Part shown: one piece after another, positions 12,383 through 47,425 of the stretch
Layout of the letters: the number at the start of each line of letters is the position of its first letter
How positions within the stretch are numbered: the stretch's first letter is position 1
From: Thermoplasmata archaeon
Lineage (GTDB): Archaea; Thermoplasmatota; Thermoplasmata; Lutacidiplasmatales; UBA184
Reading direction: 5' to 3'
NCBI GenBank assembly: GCA_021802125.1
Contig: JAKAAX010000003.1
Location: forward strand, 81,788-145,787
Length of the DNA stretch: 64,000 nucleotides
The notes under the pieces: generated by a model
What the model was told of the DNA's origin: nothing
Seen by the model: the letters and a program-made list of their open reading frames with translations, nothing else
The model's database searches: none
Made by a program: the position numbers and the translations under genes

Positions 12383-13948
12383 TCAGACGATCGGTGTCAG
12401 CCGAGCGTGCGGCGGGCCCTTCTCCGTGTCCACGCTCATGGCGTAGACCATCGTCCTCGGACGGATCCCGTAGACGCACGGGCTGTTGTCGATGTTGACG
12501 ATGCGGAAGTACGTGTCCATCATGTTGATCATCTCGGAGGTGACCAGGAGCCCCGGCTTCAGCAGCCCGATGCCCAGGTCGCCCATGATCTTCGTCCGCT
12601 CGACGCCCATGAACAGGCTCTTGATCGCGAGCTGGTCGCCCTGGAGGTACTCCAGGGTGTCGAACCCGGTGTACTCGATGAAGGGCTTGCCCTCGCCACC
12701 GCGCACGGCGCGCTCGGCGCCCTGCAGGGTCCTCTGGGCCTCCTCGCGGCCGGCCCGGAGCATCGGCAGGATGTAGGGGGCCTTGGCCTCCGTCGCGAAG
12801 TAGTCCGTGATCCGCACCCGGTCGTCGAACGTCTGGGTGGGGATGTGCTGCGTGAGCAGCTCCCGGAGCTTCTCGGGGGACTCTCCTCCAGAGAGGACGC
12901 CCAGGATCCCGCCGCCTCGGGCGAGGAAGTTCATGAACGTCGGGGCGAAGAGCAGGTAGTAGTCGTCGATCGAGACCTGGACGTCGATCTCGAACCCGTT
13001 GTAGGACCCGCGCTTGTACCCTCCTCCGAGGAGAGCGTCGAAGTCGGGGATACCGGTGGAGAAGTGCCGCTCCGTGTCCGGGATCGCCTTCCAGGGCTTG
13101 GGGGCGGCCGGTCCGGTCTCGGGGCGGGGGGCGATGCCCAGCGCCTCGAAGCGGCCTCCGGCGAGGGTGACCGCGTAGCGGGGGCGAGGGATGGCCGTCG
13201 CCCGGAGCTTGTCCAGGCGCATGTGGCGGACGCGCCGCTCGTCGAGCTCCTCCCGGGAGAAGGAGATGAGCCCGTCCACCAGGTACTCGATCCCGCCCGC
13301 TTCGGGCTTCTCGAGGATCATGACCACGTTGGTGTTCGAGTTCTCGACCAGGTCCTTCTGCAGGCACATGACGAGCTCTTCCATCTCGAGCCCGTACTTG
13401 TGCGTCACACCTTCGAGAGAGTCGACGACGAGGAGCGCCTTCTCCGGGAGCACGCGCTCGACACGGTCGTACATGTGCTCGAGCTCGGGCATCCGGGTGC
13501 GCTGGAGCAGCGACTGGAGCTGCCCGCGGTCGACCTTGGTCGGAGCGCCCCGCTCCTCCCCCACGGCGCGGAGGAAGTCGCGGGCCTGCTGGAGCTTCTG
13601 CTTGACCTCGGCGGAGGGCTCGGGAGCGGTCTCCTTGTCCCGGCCGACCAGCGTCTCCAAGAAGATCTTCCCCGCATCGAAGACGCGGGTGCGCATCTCG
13701 GTGGTCTTGAGCCAGGGGAACTGTCGGTAGAGCGCCTCGTCGGAGACGCGCGTGGAGAGGTAGAAGCTCTGGCCAGGACGGCCGGCCTTCTCGAGCAGCT
13801 CGAGCCCGAAGGTGGTCTTACCGGTACCGGCCCCACCTTTGACGATGAGGCTGCGGCCCCCCTTACCACTCAAGAACGTGACAACTTCTGGCGGAATCCC
13901 GGCGCGCTGACGGGTCCCTGCGTCCAAAGTACTCTCCCCCGGAGACAA
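12383..13948 (-). CDS. KaiC/GvpD-like double RecA-fold P-loop ATPase
   Basis: N-terminal Walker A GGAGTGKT and Walker-B-like LLVVDSLE. The second RecA-like half has no P-loop. TTG start. Confidence 0.65.
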   Translation of the reverse strand: MSPGESTLDAGTRQRAGIPPEVVTFLSGKGGRSLIVKGGAGTGKTTFGLELLEKAGRPGQSFYLSTRVSDEALYRQFPWLKTTEMRTRVFDAGKIFLETLVGRDKETAPEPSAEVKQKLQQARDFLRAVGEERGAPTKVDRGQLQSLLQRTRMPELEHMYDRVERVLPEKALLVVDSLEGVTHKYGLEMEELVMCLQKDLVENSNTNVVMILEKPEAGGIEYLVDGLISFSREELDERRVRHMRLDKLRATAIPRPRYAVTLAGGRFEALGIAPRPETGPAAPKPWKAIPDTERHFSTGIPDFDALLGGGYKRGSYNGFEIDVQVSIDDYYLLFAPTFMNFLARGGGILGVLSGGESPEKLRELLTQHIPTQTFDDRVRITDYFATEAKAPYILPMLRAGREEAQRTLQGAERAVRGGEGKPFIEYTGFDTLEYLQGDQLAIKSLFMGVERTKIMGDLGIGLLKPGLLVTSEMINMMDTYFRIVNIDNSPCVYGIRPRTMVYAMSVDTEKGPPHARLTPIV

Positions 13949-19362: not shown

Positions 19363-22300
19363 TCAGCCGGTGGGGGGAGGGGCCGGAGGACCGCCTCCGG
19401 GACCGTACGGGCCGCTCGCAGGCGGGGCGCCCCAGTTGACCGCCGTCGGGGGAGCGCCGTAGCCGGGGTAGGGGGTCATCGCGGCGGGGGGAGGCGAGCC
19501 CTTCGACCGGCGACGGAGCAGGAGCGCCGCGACGACCGCGGCGACCACCGCGACGGCAATGATCGCGAGGAGCACGAGCGACAGGCCCTGGGACCCCTGC
19601 TGCTGGACCATCACGGCGGCCGTCACGTCCACCGGGAAGGGAGGGGCGCTCGTGGCGATCGACCCGGCCGAGTCGGTCACGGTGACCGTGACCTCGCAGG
19701 TGCACGCCGAGGCGTAGGTGTGGGTCGTGGTGTTCACGGAGGCCGTCGAAAGGGTCTGGCCGTCCCCGAAGGACCAGAAGTAGCTGTAGCTCCCGGTTCC
19801 CCCGGTCGCCTTGGCCCACAGGCTCGCGGGCGAACCGACGTGGACGCTCCCGGTCCCGCCCATCGTCACGACCAGCGGGGCGACGGAGGTGACCTTCACG
19901 CTGAGCGTCGCGGAGGTGGAGGAGACTCCCGCACTGTCCGTCGCCACCACCGTCACCGGGAACGTGCCGACGCTGGCGTAGCTGTGCGAGGGGTACTGCA
20001 GGGAGGAGGTCGCTCCATCCCCGAAGGTCCAGGCGAAGGTGTAGGGGGCCACTCCCCCCGAGCCGTTCACCGCGAAGTGCCCGGGGGCCCCCACCGTGAG
20101 AGCGGTCGGCCCCGTCGGGGAGGCGGTCACCGTGTACGGGTTCACCGTGATCGTGAGCGACGTGCCGGTGGCGACCGTCCCCTTCGAATCGGTCACCGTG
20201 AGGGTGGCCGAGTAGGTGCCGGTCGTCGCGTAGACGTGCGACGGGTTCTGCAGGAGCGACGGAGCGGACCCGTCGCCGAAGTTCCAGCTCCAGGTGTACG
20301 GGGCGACCCCGCCGTACCCCGTCCCGTTGAAGGTCACGGCGAGCGGGGCGGTCCCGGCCTGGGGTAGCGCGGAGGCGTTGACCAGGAGCGGGGCGGGCGT
20401 GACGGTCACGTTGAGGTAGGCGTAGGCCTTCACCGGCTGCTGGTCCGTGACCGCGACGACCACCGGGAAGGTCCCGGTCCGCAGGTAGGTGTGCGTGGGG
20501 GACTGGAGGGTGGAGGTGCCCCCGTCGCCGAACGTCCACGCCCAGGTGTAGGTGCCGAACCCTCCGGTCGCACCGCCCGTGAAGGTCACCGCGAGGGGCA
20601 CAGGTCCCGTGCCGACGGACGCGGTGGCGGTCGCGACGAGGAGCGGATAGTTCAGCACCGTGATGTTCGTGTAGGCGTAGGCGAGGTTCGACAGGCTGTC
20701 GGATATCCGCAGGACCACCGGGTACGTCCCCGAGACGTTGTAGATGTGGCTGGGGTCCTGCGCCTGGGACCCGAGAGAGCCGTCGCCGAAGCTCCAGAGG
20801 TAGGTGTAGGCGGGAGTGCCGCCGGTGTGGGCCGACGTGAAGCTCACCGTGAGGGGCTTCTGCCCCGTGGCCGGGGTCGCGACCAGGCTTGCGGTGAGCG
20901 GCGGCGAGGTGACAGTGATGTTCCAGGGCGTGGCCCCGACCGTCGCCGCGGCGCTGTCGGAGACGGTGAGGTTCACCTGGAACGTGCCCGTGCGGGTGTA
21001 CACGTGGGACGGGGAGGCGAGGACCGACGGGGTCGAGCCGTCGCCGAAGGTCCAGGTGTAGGTGTACGGGCCCGTTCCGCCGCTCACGGTGGAGGTGAAG
21101 TTCACGTGCAGCCAGGCGGTCCCGCTGGAGGAGGAAGGGACGAAGGAGGCCGACAGGGCCCCGGGGGTCCCTCGCGTCACGGTGACGCAGGGCGCCTTGG
21201 CCCAGCCCCCGTCGGTCGTCGCGGCGCTGTCCACGACCTCGACCGTCGCGCAGTAGGTCCCGGTGGCGTAGTAGGTGTGGATCCCCGTGGCGGTCTCGTT
21301 GTACCCGTAGCTGCCGTCGCCCCACTGGTAGGTGTACAGGTAGGGTGACGTCCCTCCGCTCACCGTCGTGCTGTACGTAACGGGGCTCCCGAGGGTGACC
21401 GTCGTGCTCGAGACGGCGAGCGTGGGCGCCAGCACGGTCCCTCCGATCTCCACCTGCTGCGGGAAGGACTGGGTCCAGTTCCCGTGGGCGTCCCAGACCT
21501 CGACGACCGGGAAGAACGTCCCGGTCCCGGTGTAGGTGTAGTTGAGCACCGACTGTGTGCTCCACTGCCCGGCGTAGAGGGTGGGAACGTAGTCGTAGCG
21601 GTACGGCGGGGTCCCGCCGACGACGGTGGTCGTGAACCGCTCCATCGCGGTGTTGCCGGGGGAAACGGTGAGGCTCGCGGTGAACGCACCCGGCTGCGGA
21701 GGCTGGCTCTGGTTCCGGAACAGGTCCGGGATGAGGTTGGCGATGTTCGGGCTGCCCATCCCGGAGTCCTGGTCCCAGGCTCGCCCCGCGGCGTAGCCGT
21801 TGTTCCCGACCAGGATGTCGTGGAAGTCCTTGGTGTAGTGCGAGGAGCGGAGGATCGAGTAGAGGGAGGGCCCCAGGAGCCCCAACCCCGTGCCGCCGTG
21901 CGCTTCGTCCGCGACGGCGGTGAGCCCGGCCCAGATCGGGGTCGCCTCGCTCGTCCCGTCGGAGGAGGAGGCCGCGACGTCCGGGGTCATCCGTTGGGTG
22001 CTCCCGGTGGGGATCCCCGGACCGTACTGCCAGAAGGGCTTGCCCCAGAGGGCGGGTCCGCCCCCGCCGTCGTCCCCGGCGTTCCCTCCGCAGTTCTTCC
22101 CGTTCCCGTTCGAGCCGACCTCTCCCCCGTAGGTGGTCCCGGAGGTGTTGAAGGCCGTTCCGCCGATGTCGGTCACGTACGCGTCGCTGGCGGGGTAGTC
22201 GGTGGTCAGGATGCCCGTCCCGTCGTACGCGCCGCAGTCCCCCGAGGCCGCGAACGGGCTGATGCCCTCCGCGACGGCCTCCGCGAAGACGGGGTGGAGG

Positions 22301-23457
22301 AACTCGTAGGAACCGTCCCAGGAGGCGTTGCAGGAGTAGAACGCAAGGCAGGGCGGTGGGAAGGCCGCCATCGTGCCGGAGTCGGGCTCGCCCCAGGACA
22401 TCGAGATCGTCTGGGTCACGTTGTGGGCCACCAGGAAGTCCACGGACTCGTAGACCGCGAGGGAGCTGTCGGAAGCGAAGGTGAGGTCGATCGTGGCCCC
22501 GGGGGCCATGGTGTCGACGACCTCGATGTCGAGCTGGGTCTCCCCGCCCCATCCGCTCGAGGAGGAGCTGTTGAGGTTCGCGGTGGTGCGCTCCGGGTAG
22601 AGGAAGTTGATCTTGGGGGTCGGAAGCCCGCATCCGGAGGCGAAGCCCGTGATGTCGCTCTGGGCCTGGGCCTGGGTGAAGCCGCTGTCGTAGGCGTCCA
22701 CGATCCCCACCGTGACCCCGGCGCCGTTGTCCGTGGCGAGCACGGGGGTCTCGTTGTACTGGCCCTCGAGCTGGGAGACGGTGTTCCCTCCTGGGAGGGA
22801 GCTGCAGGCGGCCGGGACCCCGGGGGGCGAAGGCGCGCGCAGGATCGGCGGGGCGGTGTCGAGCGGTTGGATCCCCATGTGGTTGGTGAACCCGGTGAGC
22901 CCCGAGATCCCCAGCCCGCGCGGAACGACGACGCTCGCGGCCGGCCCGTAGGCCTCCGACCCATCGGCGAGGCGATACCGGTCGAAGTGGGTGTGGAACG
23001 CGGCCCCGACGGAGGTCGACGGGCCCGAGATCGAGAACATCAGGTGGTCGGCGCTGGGGGTCGCCTGGAGCCCGTAGGAGGCGTAGTACTGCTGGACGGC
23101 CGAGACCTGGGCCGGGGTGGGGGAGAAGAGCGCGCGGTATTCGCTTGGGGTGAGGAAGTGGTGGTAGGAGGGGGAGCCCGGCGTGTAGAGGGTCTGGATG
23201 AGCTGGTCGACGGCGCCCGGGTCCTGCGGGGGCAACGAGACCCCCACGGTGATGGGGGTGGTGCCGGGCAGCACTCCCTGGTCGACCGAGCCGGGGAAGG
23301 ATTGCACGAAGGAGGGAAGCATCGCCTCCATGGCCCCCTGCAGCGGCTCCTCGACGGGCGCGAGGAAGTTCGGAGCTCCCGGGAAGACGACGGGGAGTGC
23401 GGCCAGGACGACGAGGCACACGGTGAAGCCGGTCAGGGCCGAGCGGAGGGGGCGCAT
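19363..23457 (-). CDS. Secreted S53 (sedolisin/kumamolisin-type) peptidase with about 8 PKD-like domains and a C-terminal TM anchor
   Basis: Signal peptide, then a pro-kumamolisin-like propeptide. Catalytic motifs are SGWGGETQLDIE, AASGDCGA and GTSEATPIWAG. WxFGDG repeats follow, then a TM helix and a P/G-rich cytoplasmic tail. Confidence 0.85.
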   Translation of the reverse strand: MRPLRSALTGFTVCLVVLAALPVVFPGAPNFLAPVEEPLQGAMEAMLPSFVQSFPGSVDQGVLPGTTPITVGVSLPPQDPGAVDQLIQTLYTPGSPSYHHFLTPSEYRALFSPTPAQVSAVQQYYASYGLQATPSADHLMFSISGPSTSVGAAFHTHFDRYRLADGSEAYGPAASVVVPRGLGISGLTGFTNHMGIQPLDTAPPILRAPSPPGVPAACSSLPGGNTVSQLEGQYNETPVLATDNGAGVTVGIVDAYDSGFTQAQAQSDITGFASGCGLPTPKINFLYPERTTANLNSSSSSGWGGETQLDIEVVDTMAPGATIDLTFASDSSLAVYESVDFLVAHNVTQTISMSWGEPDSGTMAAFPPPCLAFYSCNASWDGSYEFLHPVFAEAVAEGISPFAASGDCGAYDGTGILTTDYPASDAYVTDIGGTAFNTSGTTYGGEVGSNGNGKNCGGNAGDDGGGGPALWGKPFWQYGPGIPTGSTQRMTPDVAASSSDGTSEATPIWAGLTAVADEAHGGTGLGLLGPSLYSILRSSHYTKDFHDILVGNNGYAAGRAWDQDSGMGSPNIANLIPDLFRNQSQPPQPGAFTASLTVSPGNTAMERFTTTVVGGTPPYRYDYVPTLYAGQWSTQSVLNYTYTGTGTFFPVVEVWDAHGNWTQSFPQQVEIGGTVLAPTLAVSSTTVTLGSPVTYSTTVSGGTSPYLYTYQWGDGSYGYNETATGIHTYYATGTYCATVEVVDSAATTDGGWAKAPCVTVTRGTPGALSASFVPSSSSGTAWLHVNFTSTVSGGTGPYTYTWTFGDGSTPSVLASPSHVYTRTGTFQVNLTVSDSAAATVGATPWNITVTSPPLTASLVATPATGQKPLTVSFTSAHTGGTPAYTYLWSFGDGSLGSQAQDPSHIYNVSGTYPVVLRISDSLSNLAYAYTNITVLNYPLLVATATASVGTGPVPLAVTFTGGATGGFGTYTWAWTFGDGGTSTLQSPTHTYLRTGTFPVVVAVTDQQPVKAYAYLNVTVTPAPLLVNASALPQAGTAPLAVTFNGTGYGGVAPYTWSWNFGDGSAPSLLQNPSHVYATTGTYSATLTVTDSKGTVATGTSLTITVNPYTVTASPTGPTALTVGAPGHFAVNGSGGVAPYTFAWTFGDGATSSLQYPSHSYASVGTFPVTVVATDSAGVSSTSATLSVKVTSVAPLVVTMGGTGSVHVGSPASLWAKATGGTGSYSYFWSFGDGQTLSTASVNTTTHTYASACTCEVTVTVTDSAGSIATSAPPFPVDVTAAVMVQQQGSQGLSLVLLAIIAVAVVAAVVAALLLRRRSKGSPPPAAMTPYPGYGAPPTAVNWGAPPASGPYGPGGGPPAPPPTG
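19618..21690 (-). repeat. Array of about 8 diverged tandem PKD-domain coding repeats (about 85 aa each)
   Basis: Recurrent motif PYTYxWxFGDGS...HxYxxxGTFxVxxxVTDSxG. Confidence 0.8.
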
Positions 23458-29441: not shown

Positions 29442-29845
29442 GCGTCTCCTCCTCTTCCTCCTCGTCCTCCTCGTCCTCCTCTCCCAGCTCTCCGAACGCG
29501 GGCTCTCCCCGGCCGGGCTCCACCCCGGGCACGCCGAAGGTCCCCGTGAACGCCGTCGCGACGAGCCCCGCCGCCCCTGTCGCTCCAGCGTTCCCCGCGA
29601 ACCCCAACCTGGAGAAGGTGCTGGTCTCTCTCGGTCAGATGGCCGAGGACGGCTCCCTCCCCCGGAACATCCGGCGCGGCGCCCAGGGCGCACGCGAGGC
29701 CCTCACGAAGGGGAACTCCGCCATCGATGTCCGCGTCGCGGGGGCCGTCAGCCTCCTCGACGATCTCGCCAACGACTCGAACATCCCGGTGCATGGACGA
29801 ACGGCGATCTGGGCCTTGATCAGCCAACTGGAGAGCCTCCAGTGA
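29438..29845 (+). CDS. UPF0147-family protein with poly-Ser/Pro N-terminal extension
   Basis: Family-like core LPRNIRRGAQGAREAL...IPVHGRTAIWALISQLE. ATGA overlap with the previous gene. The N-terminus reads [19 protein letters not shown]. Confidence 0.65.
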   Translation: MSVSSSSSSSSSSSSPSSPNAGSPRPGSTPGTPKVPVNAVATSPAAPVAPAFPANPNLEKVLVSLGQMAEDGSLPRNIRRGAQGAREALTKGNSAIDVRVAGAVSLLDDLANDSNIPVHGRTAIWALISQLESLQ

Positions 29846-29929
29846 GCCCCAAGCCATCGGGAAGAGTTATGCCCCGGGCGCTGCTGCCCGCTCTTCGGGC
29901 TGAAGGTGGGCCCGTAGCTCAGGTCGGTA

Positions 29930-29960
29930 GGACGGGAGTAACCTCTCCCGCCCCGATGAA
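29930..29960 (+). other. tRNA-Lys intron 1 (D-loop, position about 21/22)
   Basis: A 4-bp helix (29924-27/29953-56), bulge TA|G and an inner hairpin (29933-38/29945-50) give a relaxed BHB. The 3' junction is ambiguous by 2 nt. Confidence 0.65.
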
Positions 29961-29998
29961 GAGCACCCGGCTTTTAACCGGGTGGTCCGGGGTTCGAA

Positions 29999-30039
29999 AG
30001 GTCTCCAGGTCCCCTCGTCCGGGGAACGAGGCCCGAAGC
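29999..30039 (+). other. tRNA-Lys intron 2 (T-loop, position 59/60)
   Basis: Canonical hBHBh'. The T stem is the outer helix and the 3-nt bulge is GC|T. The central 4-bp helix is TTCG/CGAA (29993-96/30034-37), the second 3-nt bulge is AA|A, and the inner 6-bp helix is 30000-05/30028-33. Confidence 0.8.
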
Positions 30040-30053
30040 TCCCCGCGGGCCCG

Positions 30054-30242
30054 TCCCGCCCACTCTCCCACTCCCACCCTCACCCTCATCCCCACCCCCG
30101 CCGCCGCTCCCTCTCCCGCTCCCTCACCCTCCCCGTCCGACCCGCCCTCCACGCTCTCCCCCGCTCCCCCGACCCCAAGCCCGCGCCGCCACCCCAGCCA
30201 CCCTGCCCTCCCGCTCCGACAAACCCCCCTCCGAGGTCCAGC
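30054..30242 (+). repeat. C-rich, G-poor low-complexity tract (CCCACCCTCACCC-type) between tRNA-Lys and rpoH
   Basis: By my count about 20 G in 180 nt against a large excess of C. No AT-rich promoter-like element is present. Confidence 0.85.
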
Positions 30243-30623
30243 ATGAGCCCAAGCAAATCCAGCGCACGACCCCCGAAGCGATCGAAGGGCGCCGCCAAGG
30301 GCGCCGCCGGCGAGACGGCCCCCGAGGCGCCGAAGCTCCCCCCGGTCCAGCACGCGCTGGTCCCGACGCACGAGGTCCTCTCCGCCGAGGAGACCCAGAA
30401 AATGCTCCACAAGCTCGACACCGCCCCCGAGCGCCTCCCGAAGATCCTCTACGATGACCCTGGCCTGCAGACCGACCCGGCCTACCGAACGGTGGCCGAG
30501 TCTGCCGAGGGCGCGCGCTCCCTCGTCGGACGGCTGGTCCGGGTCCGACGTCCCTCTCCAACGGCGGGCGAGGCCGCCGTCTATCGCGTCGTGGTGGGTG
30601 GGGCCGCCGCGCGCGAGGATTGA
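30243..30623 (+). CDS. rpoH: DNA-directed RNA polymerase subunit H (Rpb5-like)
   Basis: Core [22 protein letters not shown]...[10 protein letters not shown]...[22 protein letters not shown]. Basic N-terminal extension. Confidence 0.85.
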
Positions 30624-38924: not shown

Positions 38925-39350
38925 ATGCCCGAGATCACCTTCGACACGGCCCAGTTGGGCTACATGCGGGCCTTCGAGGACCTGACGCAGGCGAAGGTGA
39001 TGGACGTCCTGGAGGCCGAGGACAAGCTGGTCTACGTGATCCACCCGGAGGACCTGAAGAAGGCCGTCGGGCCCCACGGCCAGATCGTGGAGCGCCTGAA
39101 GCAGCTCTTCAAGCGGGAGATCCAGGTCGTCGTCTGGGACGAGGACCCGGCGAAGTTCGTCCGGAACCTCTTCTACCCCTTCTCCCCGCAGCGCGTGGAG
39201 TTCTCCGACAAGCCGCAGGGGCGCCACGCGACGGTGGTCGTCGACCCCAAGTTCAAGGCGCGCGCCATCGGCAAGCAAGGGAAGAACCTGAAGATCGCCC
39301 GCGCGGTGCTCATGAGGCACAGCGACGTGATCTCGGTCAACGTGGCGTGA
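38925..39350 (+). CDS. nusA: Archaeal NusA-like KH-domain transcription factor
   Basis: 141 aa with two KH-like segments (GPHGQIVERLK and AIGKQGKNLKIAR). Conserved position after rpl30e. Confidence 0.85.
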   Translation: MPEITFDTAQLGYMRAFEDLTQAKVMDVLEAEDKLVYVIHPEDLKKAVGPHGQIVERLKQLFKREIQVVVWDEDPAKFVRNLFYPFSPQRVEFSDKPQGRHATVVVDPKFKARAIGKQGKNLKIARAVLMRHSDVISVNVA

Positions 39351-39547
39351 CGCGAGGACGCCGGCCTCCCCCCCTCCTTTCCGGTCCGGTCCGCTTGTCC
39401 CTGGCCTGGAGGCGCCCCCCGGGTGCGCCCATAGTCCCTTATGCAGGCCTGGGCCTAGTGCCACAGCGAGGTCTCCCTTTGTCCCGGACCGAGCTAGCTC
39501 GCGAGGTCGCCCTCCCGTCCCGAGGGCTCCGACACGACCCGCACGCC

Positions 39548-42500
39548 GTGACGCGTCTCGGTCGACTGCTGCCGGTCGCGGTCGTCTGCCTGCTGCTTCT
39601 TGTGCCCGTCCTCGGATCGACCACGGGCTCGGTTCCCGGCCGCGCTCCCCCACCGGAGGCGGCGACCGCTGTCCCGCGAGCGCTCCACGCGCGTCCTGCC
39701 AGTGAGAACACGGGGGACGGCATGGCGGAGCGGGCATCGCTGCGGGCCACGACCCCGTCTCTCTCCCAGGAGCTTCCGGCGCGGGATGCACCCAGCCCCC
39801 CGACCCCCCGAGCGTCCCTGCCCCTCGAAAGCACGCTCGTCCTTTCGAACAACTCGGTCGTCGCGGGGAACTTCCTCCCCGAGAACGGCGCCGCCCCGAT
39901 CGCTGCGGTCGTGGACACCGTCGACGGGAAGATCTTCGTGGCGGGGTACTGGTCCAACAACATCCTCGTCCTCTCCCAGGCGACGCACCAGCTGGAGGGT
40001 TACATCCCGGGGTTCGTGAACCCCAGTGGGCTCGCCTTCGACCCGGGCCATGACGCCCTCTTCGTCGCCTCCAGCTGGAACTCCACCTTCTACCGCCTCA
40101 CCTCGGTGCAGGCCTCGACCGGGCTCACCCTCGCGAGCGTCCTCGTCTCGGGCGGGTTCCAGTCTCTGACCGTCGACCCCGTTCACGGCCATGTGTTCGT
40201 CACGAGCTACTCCCCGATCCCGGTCTACCAGGTGATCGAGTACACCTCTCCGGGGCTCGTGCTCAGCGGAGTGTACGGTCTGTCGGGCAGCCCCTCGCTC
40301 CTGGTGATGGGGCCGGGCGATCAGGAGCTGTACGTGATCCACTCCCCGTCGGACCTCTCCCTGATCAACGCCACGACGGGAGCCTTCGGGCCCACCTACC
40401 TTCTCTCGGACTATCCGATCGACATGGTCCTCGACCCGATGGACGAAGACCTCTACCTCGTCGGATGGACGGGCTCCGGATCCCAGGAGATGGTCGTGTT
40501 GTCCACGATCACCTTCGCCCAGGTCGACTCGATCGGCCTACCCCAGCTCGCCTGGATGCTGACCGTCGATCCCAGCAGCGGGGACGTCTTTGTCGGTACG
40601 ATGAACGGATCCGGGCTTGTCCCCGCCGGCAACGGGAACGTGAGCGTCTTCGCTCCGACCTCGCTCAGCCGGCTCGCCTCGGTGCCGGTCGGGATAAGCC
40701 CGTGGGGGCTCGCGTACGACCCTCAGGGATCCATCGTCGTCACCGACGAGAGGTCGGACGGGGTGACCTTCGTCAACGCGACCACCTTCGGGGTAGAGGG
40801 GGTGACCGTGCCGGGGCCCGGCCCGTCGGCCCTCGCGGTCGACCCCAGCTCTGGTGTCGCGTACATCACGTCCGATGGGACCGACCAGGTGAATGCGCTC
40901 TCCATGTCGGGGGGCAGGATCTCCGCCAACATCACCGTGGGGGAGGACCCGAGGGGGATCTGCGTCGACCCGACAACGGGCGAGGTCTACGTGACGAACC
41001 AGGGGTCGGGGAACGTCTCGGTGATCGACGGGGCGACCGAGAAGGTCGTCGCGACGGTCCCCGTGGGGCCCTCTCCGTACGGGATCGCCTTCGACGCGAA
41101 GGACGACCTGGTCTGGGTCGCGGTGGCCGGCGCCGGGATGGTCAGCGCCATCAGCGCGCTCACGAACAAGGTGGTCGAGAACGTGACCATCTGGGAGACC
41201 CCCATGGCCTTGCTCTACGATCCGGTCGATGACAGCGTCGACGTCACCGCCCCGCTGTCCGACAATGTCCTCGCTCTCCGGGGCGTAGGCCACACCTCGG
41301 TCTCCACCTATCCCGTGTACGGGAACGCTCCGTACGCGATCGCCCTGGATGGGGTCGGGAACCGGCTCGTCGTGGCCAACTACTATTCCGGGAACCTCTC
41401 TGTCCTCAACGCCGCGACGGGGGCCTACGAGCCCTCCGTCCAGCTTGCTCTGGGGAGCGAACCGTCGGCGGTCAGCTACCTTCCGACCGTGGGCGAGGTG
41501 GCCGTCGCCAACGCCGAGGGGAACAACGTGACCGTCCTCTCCGGGTCCTCGCTGGCGCCGGTCGAAACGTTCCAGGTGGGCCTGCACCCTGAGGCGCTCG
41601 GCCCGGGCAACGGCCGTCAGCTCTACGTGGCCAACTACGGTTCGGGCTCGATCACGACCGCGACCCTGCCCGCCATCGGGTGGTTGAACATCTCCGTCGT
41701 TCCGGGCGGCTGGGGCTGCCGGAGCTTCTCCCTCGACGGGGCCCCGGTCTGGAACGGTTCGTCCCTCGCGCTACCGCTCGGGAACTACTCCCTCTCCGCC
41801 CCCGCCTTTTGCAGCGGGGGGCGAAGTTTCCAGGGATGGGGGTCGAGCGGACGGATCATCATGTACGGGACCTCGGCGGTGGCCAGCATGCAGTTGTTCG
41901 GGAACGGCAACCTCACCGCGATCTTCCAGCTACCGATCAGTCGCGTCAACATCTCGGTGGACATCTCTCCGTACTTCTGCGGCCCGGTGCTCTGGGGGAT
42001 GTCGACCCAGCTCAACGGGTCGTCCTTCCAGGGCTACATCGGGGTTACGACCATCCAAGCCTACAGCTGCAGCGGCTACTCCTTCCGAGCGTGGAACACC
42101 TCCGGGGCCATAGGCGTCTTCTCTCCGGGGCAGCCCGTCACGACCGCGGACGTCGTGGCCTCTGGGCTCAACGGCTCCCTCACGACTTGGTACGTCTCGA
42201 ACTCCACGCCTCCGTCGCTCCTGGTCTCGCTGCAAGCCTACCCCATCAACGGCGTGGCCCCGTTGACGGTCGGGTTCCAGGTGCAAGTGAGCGGGGGTCG
42301 GCCGCCCTACAGCGTCTCCTGGAGCTTCGGGGACGGTGGAACGGGCACTGGCCAGACGACCAGTCACATCTACGTCCAGCCGGGGGTCTGGATGGCGGTC
42401 GCCGAGGTCTTCGACTCTGGAGGCAACGTCACGGAGAAGACGGTGAACATCTCCGTCACCGGCTCCCCCCCGGTGCTGGGCATCTCGGCCTACGCCCAGC

Positions 42501-42970
42501 CCCAGACCCTTTCCCTCGGTCAGAGCGTGCAGTTCACCGCTGTCGTTACTGGAGCGCCACAGCCCTACTCGCTCTCTTGGTCGTCCCTTCCTCCGGGTTG
42601 CGGGCCCTTCTACACCGCGCAGTTCGTCTGCACGCCGACGCAGTCCGGCGTGTTCGACGTGCAGGTCACCGTGACGGATTCCTTCGGCCAGTCGGCCTCG
42701 ACCCTGGTCGAGGTGACGGTCACTCCCACCTCGAGCTCCTTCACCGGACCGCTGCTGCAAGGCCCCTGGGTCGCCGGTGAACTCCTCACCAGCCTCGTCC
42801 TCGCGATCGTGGCCTGGCTCATCCTCCTCCGAAAGGGGAGGCTCGGATCCATCGCTGGGCGCGAGAGGCGACCGCCGGGCACGTCCCTGGGAGCCTCTCC
42901 CGGTGAAGGCCAGGTGGGCCCCAACTCGGGAACGGAAGGGACCGAGCTCCAGATCCGCACCTTCCAGTAG
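39548..42970 (+). CDS. Large cell-surface protein: signal peptide, YVTN-type beta-propeller repeats, PKD domains, C-terminal TM anchor
   Basis: GTG at 39548 gives the signal peptide VTRLGRLLPVAVVCLLLLVPVLG. Repeats such as PRGICVDPTTGEVYVTNQGSGNVSVIDGAT are present, with PKD motif WSFGDGGTG and TM segment LVLAIVAWLILL. The ORF is open upstream to 39347, so the start is uncertain. Confidence 0.8.
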   Translation: MTRLGRLLPVAVVCLLLLVPVLGSTTGSVPGRAPPPEAATAVPRALHARPASENTGDGMAERASLRATTPSLSQELPARDAPSPPTPRASLPLESTLVLSNNSVVAGNFLPENGAAPIAAVVDTVDGKIFVAGYWSNNILVLSQATHQLEGYIPGFVNPSGLAFDPGHDALFVASSWNSTFYRLTSVQASTGLTLASVLVSGGFQSLTVDPVHGHVFVTSYSPIPVYQVIEYTSPGLVLSGVYGLSGSPSLLVMGPGDQELYVIHSPSDLSLINATTGAFGPTYLLSDYPIDMVLDPMDEDLYLVGWTGSGSQEMVVLSTITFAQVDSIGLPQLAWMLTVDPSSGDVFVGTMNGSGLVPAGNGNVSVFAPTSLSRLASVPVGISPWGLAYDPQGSIVVTDERSDGVTFVNATTFGVEGVTVPGPGPSALAVDPSSGVAYITSDGTDQVNALSMSGGRISANITVGEDPRGICVDPTTGEVYVTNQGSGNVSVIDGATEKVVATVPVGPSPYGIAFDAKDDLVWVAVAGAGMVSAISALTNKVVENVTIWETPMALLYDPVDDSVDVTAPLSDNVLALRGVGHTSVSTYPVYGNAPYAIALDGVGNRLVVANYYSGNLSVLNAATGAYEPSVQLALGSEPSAVSYLPTVGEVAVANAEGNNVTVLSGSSLAPVETFQVGLHPEALGPGNGRQLYVANYGSGSITTATLPAIGWLNISVVPGGWGCRSFSLDGAPVWNGSSLALPLGNYSLSAPAFCSGGRSFQGWGSSGRIIMYGTSAVASMQLFGNGNLTAIFQLPISRVNISVDISPYFCGPVLWGMSTQLNGSSFQGYIGVTTIQAYSCSGYSFRAWNTSGAIGVFSPGQPVTTADVVASGLNGSLTTWYVSNSTPPSLLVSLQAYPINGVAPLTVGFQVQVSGGRPPYSVSWSFGDGGTGTGQTTSHIYVQPGVWMAVAEVFDSGGNVTEKTVNISVTGSPPVLGISAYAQPQTLSLGQSVQFTAVVTGAPQPYSLSWSSLPPGCGPFYTAQFVCTPTQSGVFDVQVTVTDSFGQSASTLVEVTVTPTSSSFTGPLLQGPWVAGELLTSLVLAIVAWLILLRKGRLGSIAGRERRPPGTSLGASPGEGQVGPNSGTEGTELQIRTFQ

Positions 42971-43158: not shown

Positions 43159-43446
43159 GAAGCCTGTTCTGATTCCGCTTACCGAACGAGGGGCCTTCGG
43201 GTCCAGCTCGTTCGGGGCGCCCGTACGTTGCGCCGGGGATCGGTGAACCGGCGAATCCATGAGGCGCCACAGATGGCCCGAAAGGGGCGTGGAGCCCCGA
43301 GAAACCCCCCGCAGGGATGCGGGGTGCCCTCTCGGGACCGACAGGGGAAGGCGAAATGACGCGACCGGACCGAAAGGTCCGGATGACAGTCAGAGGCTGT
43401 ACAAACCCTTCCGACCGATCGTGGTCGGAAGAAACTCAATTCAGAA

Positions 43447-44912
<1,466 letters not shown>

Positions 44913-47352: not shown

Positions 47353-47425
47353 TGCCGCGGGCCGGACTTGAACCAGCGGCCTACAGATCTTCAGTCTGTC
47401 GCTCTCCCAACTGAGCTACCGCGGC
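47353..47425 (-). tRNA. tRNA-Phe (anticodon GAA)
   Basis: 73-nt cloverleaf: GCCGCGG/CCGCGGC acceptor, GCTC/GAGC D stem, ACAGA-CTGAAGA-TCTGT anticodon arm and TTCAAGT T-loop. A CTTTATCA box lies about 32 nt upstream (47453-47460). Confidence 0.93.

Follow-up and report, generated by a model that had tools for sequence, protein, structure and literature searches.

A tRNA-Lys(UUU) gene interrupted in its D-loop and T-loop at a conserved locus of a Lutacidiplasmatales-like clade of Thermoplasmata

Anatomy and conservation of the interrupted gene

The window analyzed here, a 64,000-nucleotide (nt) stretch of a contig from a Thermoplasmata archaeon, carries on its forward strand a tRNA-Lys(UUU) gene whose three exons are separated by one insert in the D-loop and another in the T-loop. 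The host is a Thermoplasmata metagenome-assembled genome (MAG) related to Ca. Lutacidiplasmatales. In archaeal tRNA splicing, the endonuclease EndA cuts after the second nucleotide of two 3-nt bulges lying 4 bp apart, and RtcB ligates the exons; the features below are named after the parts of this motif, known as bulge-helix-bulge (BHB), with outer helix h, central helix H and inner helix h'.

29908..30053, + strand: complete tRNA-Lys(UUU) gene, a 146-nt precursor body of three exons and two introns (from the sequence, a BHB-aware scan and syntenic orthologues)
29908..29928, + strand: exon 1, with the acceptor 5' strand, U8 and A9, the D-stem 5' strand and the D-loop from A14 to U20, in the register that sets the intron at 20/21
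29929..29959, + strand: intron 1, 31 nt, at D-loop position 20/21 (length fixed at 31 nt in 73/73 clade copies; register analysis)
29923..29926, + strand: exon side of the central 4-bp helix H of intron 1, N16 N17 N17a G18 = GTCG, with its partner at 29954-29957 (CGAT)
29930..29953, + strand: inner hairpin h' inside intron 1, formed by GGACGGGAG / CTCCCGCCC around the loop TAACCT and containing a single A.C mismatch (alignment, covariation and fold; closing G:C invariant)
29960..29998, + strand: exon 2, with A21, the D-stem 3' strand, the anticodon arm, the variable loop, the T-stem 5' strand and the T-loop from T54 to A59
29972-29974, + strand: anticodon TTT, within exon 2
29999..30039, + strand: intron 2, 41 nt, at T-loop position 59/60, a strict hBHBh' (alignment, covariation, folds and the junction of locus L071)
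29988-29992 / 30041-30045, + strand: outer helix h of intron 2, which is the T stem
29993-29996 (TTCG) / 30034-30037 (CGAA), + strand: central helix H of intron 2
29997-29999 (AA|A) and 30038-30040 (GC|T), + strand: bulges of intron 2
30000-30005 / 30028-30033, + strand: inner helix h' of intron 2, 6 bp, GGTCTC/GAGGCC
30006-30027, + strand: apical hairpin of intron 2
30040..30053, + strand: exon 3, with T60, the T-stem 3' strand, the acceptor 3' strand and the discriminator G; CCA is unencoded

Deletion of 29930-29960 and 29999-30039 yields a 74-mer that ARAGORN calls tRNA-Lys(ttt), with 4/4 stems fully Watson-Crick paired and with U8, A14, G18G19, A21, the T-loop UUCGAAU and the discriminator G in place, which agrees with the flawless cloverleaf described in the first-pass annotation of this DNA. 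That annotation had set intron 1 at 29930-29960; its 74-nt product is favored by the comparative data, and the placement preferred here is 29929-29959, which gives an identical spliced product (A29929 = A29960). The unconstrained minimum free energy (MFE) fold of the 146-mer contains the intron-2 module exactly, reproducing every element of the textbook motif previously claimed for it (the T stem, TTCG/CGAA, AA|A, GC|T and the 6-bp inner helix), and it pairs D-loop nt 16-20 with intron 1. Likewise, the relaxed BHB ascribed to intron 1, with a 3' site ambiguous by 2 nt, was found again in the register analysis described below.

The first-pass annotation had also warned that no intact tRNA can be read at the locus and that standard finders may miss or mis-call it, and both kinds of failure were encountered. 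Run on the window, ARAGORN missed the unspliced locus and reported a sole tRNA, the tRNA-Phe at 47353-47425 on the minus strand. At the gathering threshold, Rfam found only this tRNA-Phe and the 16S rRNA in the whole window, again missing the tRNA-Lys locus; when the search was confined to 351 nt, the Rfam tRNA model reached 25.5 bits at the locus, below the gathering score of 29, with its 3' end misplaced. When ARAGORN was allowed to place introns, all of its calls were false and involved introns of hundreds of nt. In the locus L071 of a related species, at L071:9576-9646, ARAGORN calls an 'intact' 71-nt tRNA-Lys that starts inside intron 1 and has a spurious D arm, which is an example of a mis-call.

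A BHB-aware scan of both window strands, comprising approximately 346,000 single and double in-silico splices that were each tested with ARAGORN, recovered the tRNA-Lys locus in both registers of intron 1. A strict version of the scan, with three perfect inner-helix pairs, skipped the locus on account of its A.C mismatch, and the relaxed version recovers it. Across both strands of the whole window, the scan yielded no further credible hidden tRNA; the other candidates (Pro, Leu, Asp and others) were discarded for their abnormal length and their position within coding sequence. As to similar introns in the remaining tRNAs, the window has only one other tRNA, the tRNA-Phe, and this is uninterrupted. 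The introns were also considered as carriers of a C/D-box guide RNA: intron 1 ends in ...CGATGAA, but the C box (RUGAUGA) is absent and the motif is unconserved in other species, and this candidate was rejected.

The locus is not peculiar to one assembly. An exact-protein look-up found it in seven MAG assemblies from NCBI and in three from ENA, and in the 8 assemblies that reach the tRNA region, this region is identical save for one substitution in the apical loop of intron 2; because 8 independent assemblies of the same species agree, an assembly artefact is excluded. An RpoB scan with one genome per GTDB species then gave 80 loci, all titled Thermoplasmata archaeon and including Candidatus Lutacidiplasma silvani and a Ca. 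Lutacidiplasmatales archaeon with approximately 86% RpoB identity; 9 of the 80 begin inside or just before rpoB, without the upstream region, leaving 71 usable. The tRNA-Lys(UUU) gene stands upstream of rpoH-rpoB in 71/71 of these species-level genomes, with intron 1 in 71/71 and intron 2 in 70/71. Among 73 distinct copies that were parsed, all have intron 1 at a fixed length, with a 22-nt inner segment, and all save one have intron 2, at 33-46 nt; the exception is L071 (RpoB 77%), where an uninterrupted T-loop TTCGAAT corresponds to the predicted splice junction.

Lutacidiplasmatales are Thermoplasmatota of acid soil, with approximately 69% GC, and are sister to Methanomassiliicoccales (PMC9287336). 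The first-pass annotation had judged the genome Thermoplasmatota-like from its unsplit rpoB and unlinked 16S, and this holds: the RpoB relatives are all Thermoplasmata, rpoB is unsplit and no 23S adjoins the 16S. Its remark that such introns are unexpected in such a genome stands in that the host belongs to the Thermoplasmata; it does not stand as an oddity of one genome, the introns being a trait of a whole Lutacidiplasmatales-like clade and of distant relatives, which together form a large group of uncultured archaea from soil and sediment.

The inserts are constrained in their pairing. In a gap-free alignment of 65 distinct sequences and 128 columns, from which the apical part of intron 2 was removed, paired cells amount to 93.3% compared to 87.0% in shuffles, and cells changed on both sides number 176 compared to 72 expected, with double changes in 15 pairs; the observed covariation was reached by 0/500 shuffles. 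When the partners were slid by 1-3 columns, pairing fell to 37-56%. In particular, D-loop nt 17/17a form with intron 1 a helix (17:49, 18:48) that is 100% paired, with compensatory UA/UG/CG and AU/CG changes, and the inner helices of introns 1 and 2 both covary. A de novo RNAalifold calculation arrived at the same architecture, with compensatory changes in 10/37 pairs. The mean pairwise identity is 0.951 in the exons, 0.636 in intron 1 and 0.567 in the intron-2 flanks, and 9/14 variable exon columns fall in covarying pairs. Because the exons are conserved, the introns variable and the helices covarying, the gene appears to be functional and its inserts constrained only in shape.

The two introns differ in how closely they follow the archaeal motif. 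Intron 2 is a strict hBHBh', with a 5-bp T stem paired in 100% of the sequences, a helix H paired in 98.5%, 3-nt bulges throughout and, in h', 94-100% pairing at the first three pairs. Intron 1 departs from it: across from its 3' bulge, A14 and G15 stay unpaired in either register, as does N16 in the 76-nt register. Its 3' site therefore sits within an internal loop that the D stem closes, which makes it a relaxed HBh'. In every copy of intron 2, 4 bp separate the two 3-nt bulges that hold the junctions; for intron 1, the same geometry holds in register 16-19:47-50, where the outer helix is defective. Overall, the best explanation of these sequences is very probably a functional tRNA-Lys(UUU) gene with two BHB introns that are processed by EndA.

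The EndA of the clade and a proposed splicing pathway

The first-pass annotation had linked such introns to splicing endonucleases of broadened specificity and had pointed to the EndA architecture as informative. No endA was found in the window or in any of the rpoB-region loci, using a M. jannaschii EndA query and then 269 EndA homologues. A purL-purQ-endA adjacency (L092) was discarded as a lead: it belongs to a Halobacteriales MAG whose PurL is 44% identical to that of the window, and no endA stands beside the window's purL. A first EndA profile search returned mainly Archaeoglobus and low-GC Thermoplasmatota proteins. The EndA of the clade was reached by starting from the catalytic domains of solved EndAs, searching a representative library, filtering by an amino-acid composition of the GC type and running two further searches. 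This route led to a family of at least 120 clusters, nearly all of exactly 354 amino acids (aa), 77-87% identical to the query and assigned to 'Thermoplasmata archaeon' where named.

One member, P0465, is encoded on JBARNH010000024.1, and its MAG also contains, as contig JBARNH010000047.1, locus L053 with the two-intron tRNA-Lys; further family members share ENA assemblies with the window's species. The conserved endA neighborhood (L093-L125) consists of DUF2070, peptidase M28/M20, CarS-like, phosphoribosyltransferase (PRTase) and endA genes, with a trpA/B/F/C/D operon converging on the opposite strand; at its start, endA shares 4 nt with the PRTase gene.

P0465 contains PF02778+PF01974 twice and hence two EndA units in tandem, structural at the N-terminus and catalytic at the C-terminus. 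The catalytic Tyr, His and Lys are kept (HFRAY, SHARY and VRKE, aligned with 1A79), and the catalytic repeat (residues 187-354) is colinear with the loop-less M. jannaschii 1A79 save for one 2-residue gap; aligned with the A. fulgidus chimera 3P1Y, it shows a gap exactly at the site where the crenarchaeal loop (CSL) was grafted. None of the loops tied to broadened specificity (L1/CSL, L2/ASL and L3) is present in P0465. The AlphaFold2 model of the clade EndA (mean predicted local distance difference test score, pLDDT, of 92.3; predicted template modeling score, pTM, of 0.87) consists of two repeats with no extra or low-confidence segment. Its best fold match is the M. kandleri beta-alpha fusion 5X89 (template modeling, TM, scores of 0.87/0.91), followed by the A. 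fulgidus alpha'2 enzyme 2GJW (0.79/0.90) and also 1RLV; by sequence, the match to M. kandleri 5X89 has E = 1e-32 and is colinear over residues 17-341. By sequence and predicted fold, the clade EndA is a two-unit alpha'2-like enzyme without L1, L2 and L3, which runs counter to the expected link with broadened specificity. From this architecture alone, a homodimeric assembly would be expected.

We infer the following course of transcription, cleavage and ligation. A precursor of approximately 146 nt would be transcribed from an AT-rich box approximately 40 nt upstream, probably together with rpoH-rpoB in most relatives. In it, D-loop N16-G18(G19) would pair with intron 1 and T-loop T54-G57 with intron 2, forming two BHB modules. 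EndA would cut intron 1 at G19-U20|N and A-N|A21, and intron 2 at A58-A59|N and N-N|U60, after which a RtcB-type ligase would join the exons into a 74-nt tRNA with a 9-nt D-loop (AGGUCGGUA) and the T-loop UUCGAAU. As a strict hBHBh', intron 2 should be cleavable by any EndA type; the 3' site of intron 1 would be presented within a 2x3 internal loop that the D stem closes. The elbow between G18/G19 and U55/C56 would form only after both excisions. The introns pair with both sets of elbow-forming nucleotides, N16-G19 (29923-29927) and T54-G57 (29993-29996), and because they sequester these nucleotides, the L-shape would be blocked until both introns are excised; such pairing may be a coincidence, or it may be a checkpoint of folding or quality.

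Alternative readings and the register of intron 1

Several points weigh against a functional gene whose two introns are removed by this enzyme. In vitro, cleavage of a D-loop HBh' intron was inefficient with the A. fulgidus alpha'2 EndA and with that of M. kandleri, which has no loop (PMC5829648); the clade EndA is therefore not the type expected for intron 1. This EndA is tied to the tRNA through MAG binning, and these genomes may contain another EndA paralogue elsewhere. The search for tRNAs was confined to the window, so that an intron-less tRNA-Lys(UUU) could be present elsewhere in the genome, and the inner helix of the window's own intron 1 contains an A.C mismatch. To these is added, for the placement of intron 1, the perfect pairing of a competing helix.

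Two registers of intron 1 are possible, because the invariant G18, G19 and first intron G let the 3-nt 5' bulge migrate.

Register A: helix H between nt 17-G19 and the intron; intron 29930-29958 (29 nt); 76-nt product with an 11-nt D-loop; bulges U20-N|G and N-N|N
Register B: helix H between nt 16-G18 and the intron; intron 29929-29959; 74-nt product with the 9-nt D-loop; bulges G19-U20|N and A-N|A21

The sequence comparisons clearly favor register B, with intron 1 at position 20/21, because the conserved bases (A21, invariant, and U20, in 62/65 of the clade alignment) would then be exonic and the variable ones intronic, with an invariant closing G:C of h', which is also the pattern of intron 2, where the register is unambiguous. 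The register-B pair between N16 and column 50 is formed in 31/65 clade copies; non-C bases at column 50 are complementary to N16 in 16/16 cases, and the observed pairing was reached by 0/5000 shuffles. Excision in register A, which would involve the same gene and mechanism, is unlikely. Its helix (17-20:46-49) is 100% paired in the 65 clade sequences and was the one chosen by RNAalifold, the N16:column 50 pair of its competitor is formed in less than half of them, and ARAGORN also accepts the 76-nt product; however, under this register the highly variable columns 22 and 52 would become part of the mature D-loop, and the invariant G23 would fall within the intron. Moreover, outside the clade N16 pairs with the base that follows the helix in 44/48 distinct copies, nearly always as C16:G, which makes up the 4-bp helix of register B, and distant tRNA-Lys genes with a different D-loop intron (L222/L202) imply a 9-nt D-loop.

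It is very improbable that the mature RNA keeps the inserts, or that self-splicing or other RNases remove them without EndA, with an incidental likeness to BHB motifs. The lack, in the enzyme found, of the loops tied to relaxed motifs would fit such a reading. Against it, the inserts (31-46 nt) are far below the size of group I or II introns, and they tie up G18/G19 and T54-G57, on which the elbow of every elongator tRNA depends; the covarying features are those that EndA reads (3-nt bulges 4 bp apart and flanking helices), and the clade encodes an EndA whose catalytic triad is intact.

Least probable of all, with hardly any chance of being right, is a pseudogene, a former tRNA-Lys that acquired two insertions and fell out of use while an intact copy elsewhere supplies the tRNA: the silence of standard finders at the locus, the inner-helix mismatch and the conceivable intron-less copy speak for it, but neither the uniform decay nor the pairing loss of a pseudogene is seen, given exons 95% identical across 65 species compared to 57-64% for the inserts, variable exon columns that mostly covary, exact insert positions and an exact intron-1 length, a conserved promoter-like box, and a BHB geometry kept by compensatory changes in 71 species and in relatives down to approximately 48% RpoB identity.

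Genomic context, distribution and relation to known tRNA introns

The twice-interrupted tRNA-Lys gene is followed by the RNA polymerase genes, with these features around it.

29860..29873, + strand: AT-rich promoter-like box GGAAGAGTTATGCC, at position -45 to -32
30054..30243, + strand: C-rich spacer between the tRNA and rpoH, approximately 190 nt, confined to the window's species and closest relatives
30244..30623, + strand: rpoH (RNA_pol_Rpb5_C), first gene of the rpoH-rpoB-rpoA'-rpoA''-L30e-NusA cluster after the tRNA

The upstream neighbor is a UPF0147 gene that ends at 29845. The box at -45 to -32 reads RATAGGYTGAAATAC in approximately 65 other species (L013-L090) and is plausibly an archaeal promoter, with a transcription factor B recognition element (BRE) and TATA box. 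The spacer to rpoH differs in sequence even between strains of the window's species, and in most species the rpoH start codon lies 20-27 nt past the tRNA 3' end, with GGAG before the start. Because of this short distance, the tRNA and rpoH-rpoB would be on one transcript, and in most relatives tRNA-Lys is probably the 5' element of the RNA-polymerase operon transcript. Further, a leader CGGAGCG (-11 to -5) is complementary to a trailer CGCTCCG (+3 to +9) in L013-L090; this helix, with 7 consecutive pairs in one register only, is formed in 64-94% of 67 distinct loci and partly in the window (29897-29903 / 30056-30062). It may be a processing helix; alternatively, the CTCC strand of the trailer could pair with the Shine-Dalgarno-like GGAG of rpoH.

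Elsewhere, rpoB encodes 1223-1236 aa, the 16S gene lies at 43446-44912 and the GC content is about 69-70%. The window also encodes a 1364-aa secreted-type protein with a pro-kumamolisin activation domain and six PKD domains (19363-23457, minus strand), a 1207-aa secreted-type protein with an NHL/beta-propeller region and PKD domains (39347-42970, plus strand; 1082-1164 aa among strains) and a 521-aa GvpD/KaiC-like P-loop protein (12383-13948, minus strand), with no other gas-vesicle gene among the window open reading frames that were scanned.

The interrupted gene extends beyond the clade. A metagenome scan for the tRNA-Lys(UUU) exon pattern with a 20-45-nt insert after G18G19 matched at least 120 contigs. 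Among the contigs listed, GC ranges from 0.34 to 0.72 and the inserts from 23 to 45 nt, and an unsplit rpoB lies approximately 0.5 kb downstream in nearly all that are long enough to show it. Their RpoB identity to the window is 83-91% for the Lutacidiplasmatales type and 59-69% for a large second group, including anaerobic-digester contigs, and goes down to 38-53% in the remaining ones. The intron content was counted in the 113 complete copies among the matches listed.

D-loop and T-loop introns: 92/113, RpoB identity to the window 48-89%
D-loop, canonical 37/38 and T-loop introns: 13/113, RpoB identity to the window 61-69%
D-loop and 37/38 introns: 2/113, RpoB identity to the window 58%
D-loop intron only: 6/113, RpoB identity to the window 38-60%; 3/6 are of a distant type with a different intron design

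The three-intron copies (L137, L141, L150, L155, L161, L167, L184, L186, L191, L192, L200, L229 and L238) are on contigs with 65-71% GC; their third intron, at 37/38, has 20-44 nt and pairs with the anticodon. Contigs whose RpoB is 48-69% identical probably represent other Thermoplasmatota orders or classes, to judge by this identity and by synteny. The history of the introns is resolvable from these copies, with the D-loop intron oldest, the T-loop intron later and the anticodon intron added in one branch.

What is new about these introns is the lineage in which they occur; the kind of intron is already known. Non-canonical or multiple BHB introns are known from Thermoproteales, Thaumarchaeota and some DPANN and Asgard archaea, where they are tied to EndA loop insertions (PMC4033280, PMC4090602, PMC5829648, PMC8450103); for the multiple introns of the Thermoproteales type, these sources cite Marck & Grosjean 2003 and Sugahara et al. 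2008 (PMC4033280, PMC4090602, PMC8450103). Reviews assign to Euryarchaeota with alpha4 or alpha'2 EndA a single BHB intron at the canonical 37/38 (PMC4090602). In the literature searched, with most subscription journals outside the search, no paper was found that describes tRNA introns of the non-canonical kind for Thermoplasmatota or Methanomassiliicoccales.

On our comparison, the closest precedent in both substrate and enzyme is the M. kandleri pre-tRNA-Glu(UUC), which has a HBh' intron at D-loop 20b/21 together with a canonical intron and is served by a loop-less (alpha-beta)2 EndA (PMC5829648). The two systems share a euryarchaeal host, a D-loop HBh' intron immediately 5' of A21 with the D stem as a distant outer helix, multiple introns in one tRNA, and an EndA without L1, L2 or L3 loops. 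Unlike in M. kandleri, the two EndA units are here naturally fused in one 354-aa polypeptide, the tRNA is Lys and not Glu, and the second intron is at T-loop 59/60 and not at 37/38; moreover, the M. kandleri case comes from one organism studied by biochemistry, whereas the present arrangement is seen in the sequences of hundreds of species across a very large radiation.

Other known systems are partial matches. As in Thermoproteales, other TACK archaea, Thaumarchaeota and some DPANN archaea, the introns are small, BHB-bounded, outside 37/38, up to three per gene and invisible to ordinary finders. However, those lineages have (alpha-beta)2 or epsilon2 EndA, or alpha4 with L3, whereas here Thermoplasmata have a loop-less two-unit EndA; and their introns are scattered over many tRNAs and apparently transposing, whereas the present ones appear ancient and position-fixed in one orthologous gene. 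Intron 2, as a strict hBHBh' that would be recognized independently of the mature domain, resembles the canonical introns of A. fulgidus, T. acidophilum and Haloferax, and the clade EndA shares the two-unit architecture of their alpha'2 enzymes; unlike those introns at 37/38, there are two in one gene, at 59/60 and 20/21. A small intron inside an archaeal T arm has a parallel in the 31-nt intron of Lokiarchaeota tRNA-Sec, mentioned in PMC9499178, in a different tRNA and a different phylum (Asgard) and as a single intron; Asgard archaea have an L1-loop EndA (PMC5829648).

Borrel et al. detected no tRNA-Lys in Methanomassiliicoccus luminyensis by tRNAscan, TFAM, ARAGORN or BLASTN, and ascribed its absence to approximately 17 kb of unsequenced DNA (PMC4153887). 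A multiply interrupted tRNA-Lys like the present gene is a plausible alternative explanation. More broadly, we put forward tentatively, as a possibility that is more doubtful than the reading of the gene itself, that a fused loop-less EndA routinely removes, across a class-level Thermoplasmatota radiation, the relaxed HBh' D-loop intron and the T-loop intron (and, in sister lineages, a 37/38 intron) of a single tRNA-Lys(UUU) gene; that the loop-requirement rule is incomplete; that tRNA splicing could couple to rpoH-rpoB expression; and that the 'missing' tRNA-Lys of M. luminyensis could be explained in this way.

The interest of the locus rests on its conflict with the loop rule, on the depth and regularity of conservation at one syntenic site and on its consequences for annotation. 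In particular, one relaxed and one ectopic intron that have long been kept alongside a loop-less EndA challenge the rule that ties non-canonical, relaxed or multiple introns to EndA loop insertions (PMC5829648), and they offer a natural and abundant test case, in which a 146-nt substrate and a single 354-aa enzyme are both easily made. With ordinary finders, tRNA-Lys(UUU) will seem to be missing from MAGs of Lutacidiplasmatales and related Thermoplasmata, which affects inferences of completeness and codon usage. Finally, the copies form a fixed-locus record of introns in one orthologous, syntenic gene, which is rare material for the debate on how tRNA introns are gained.

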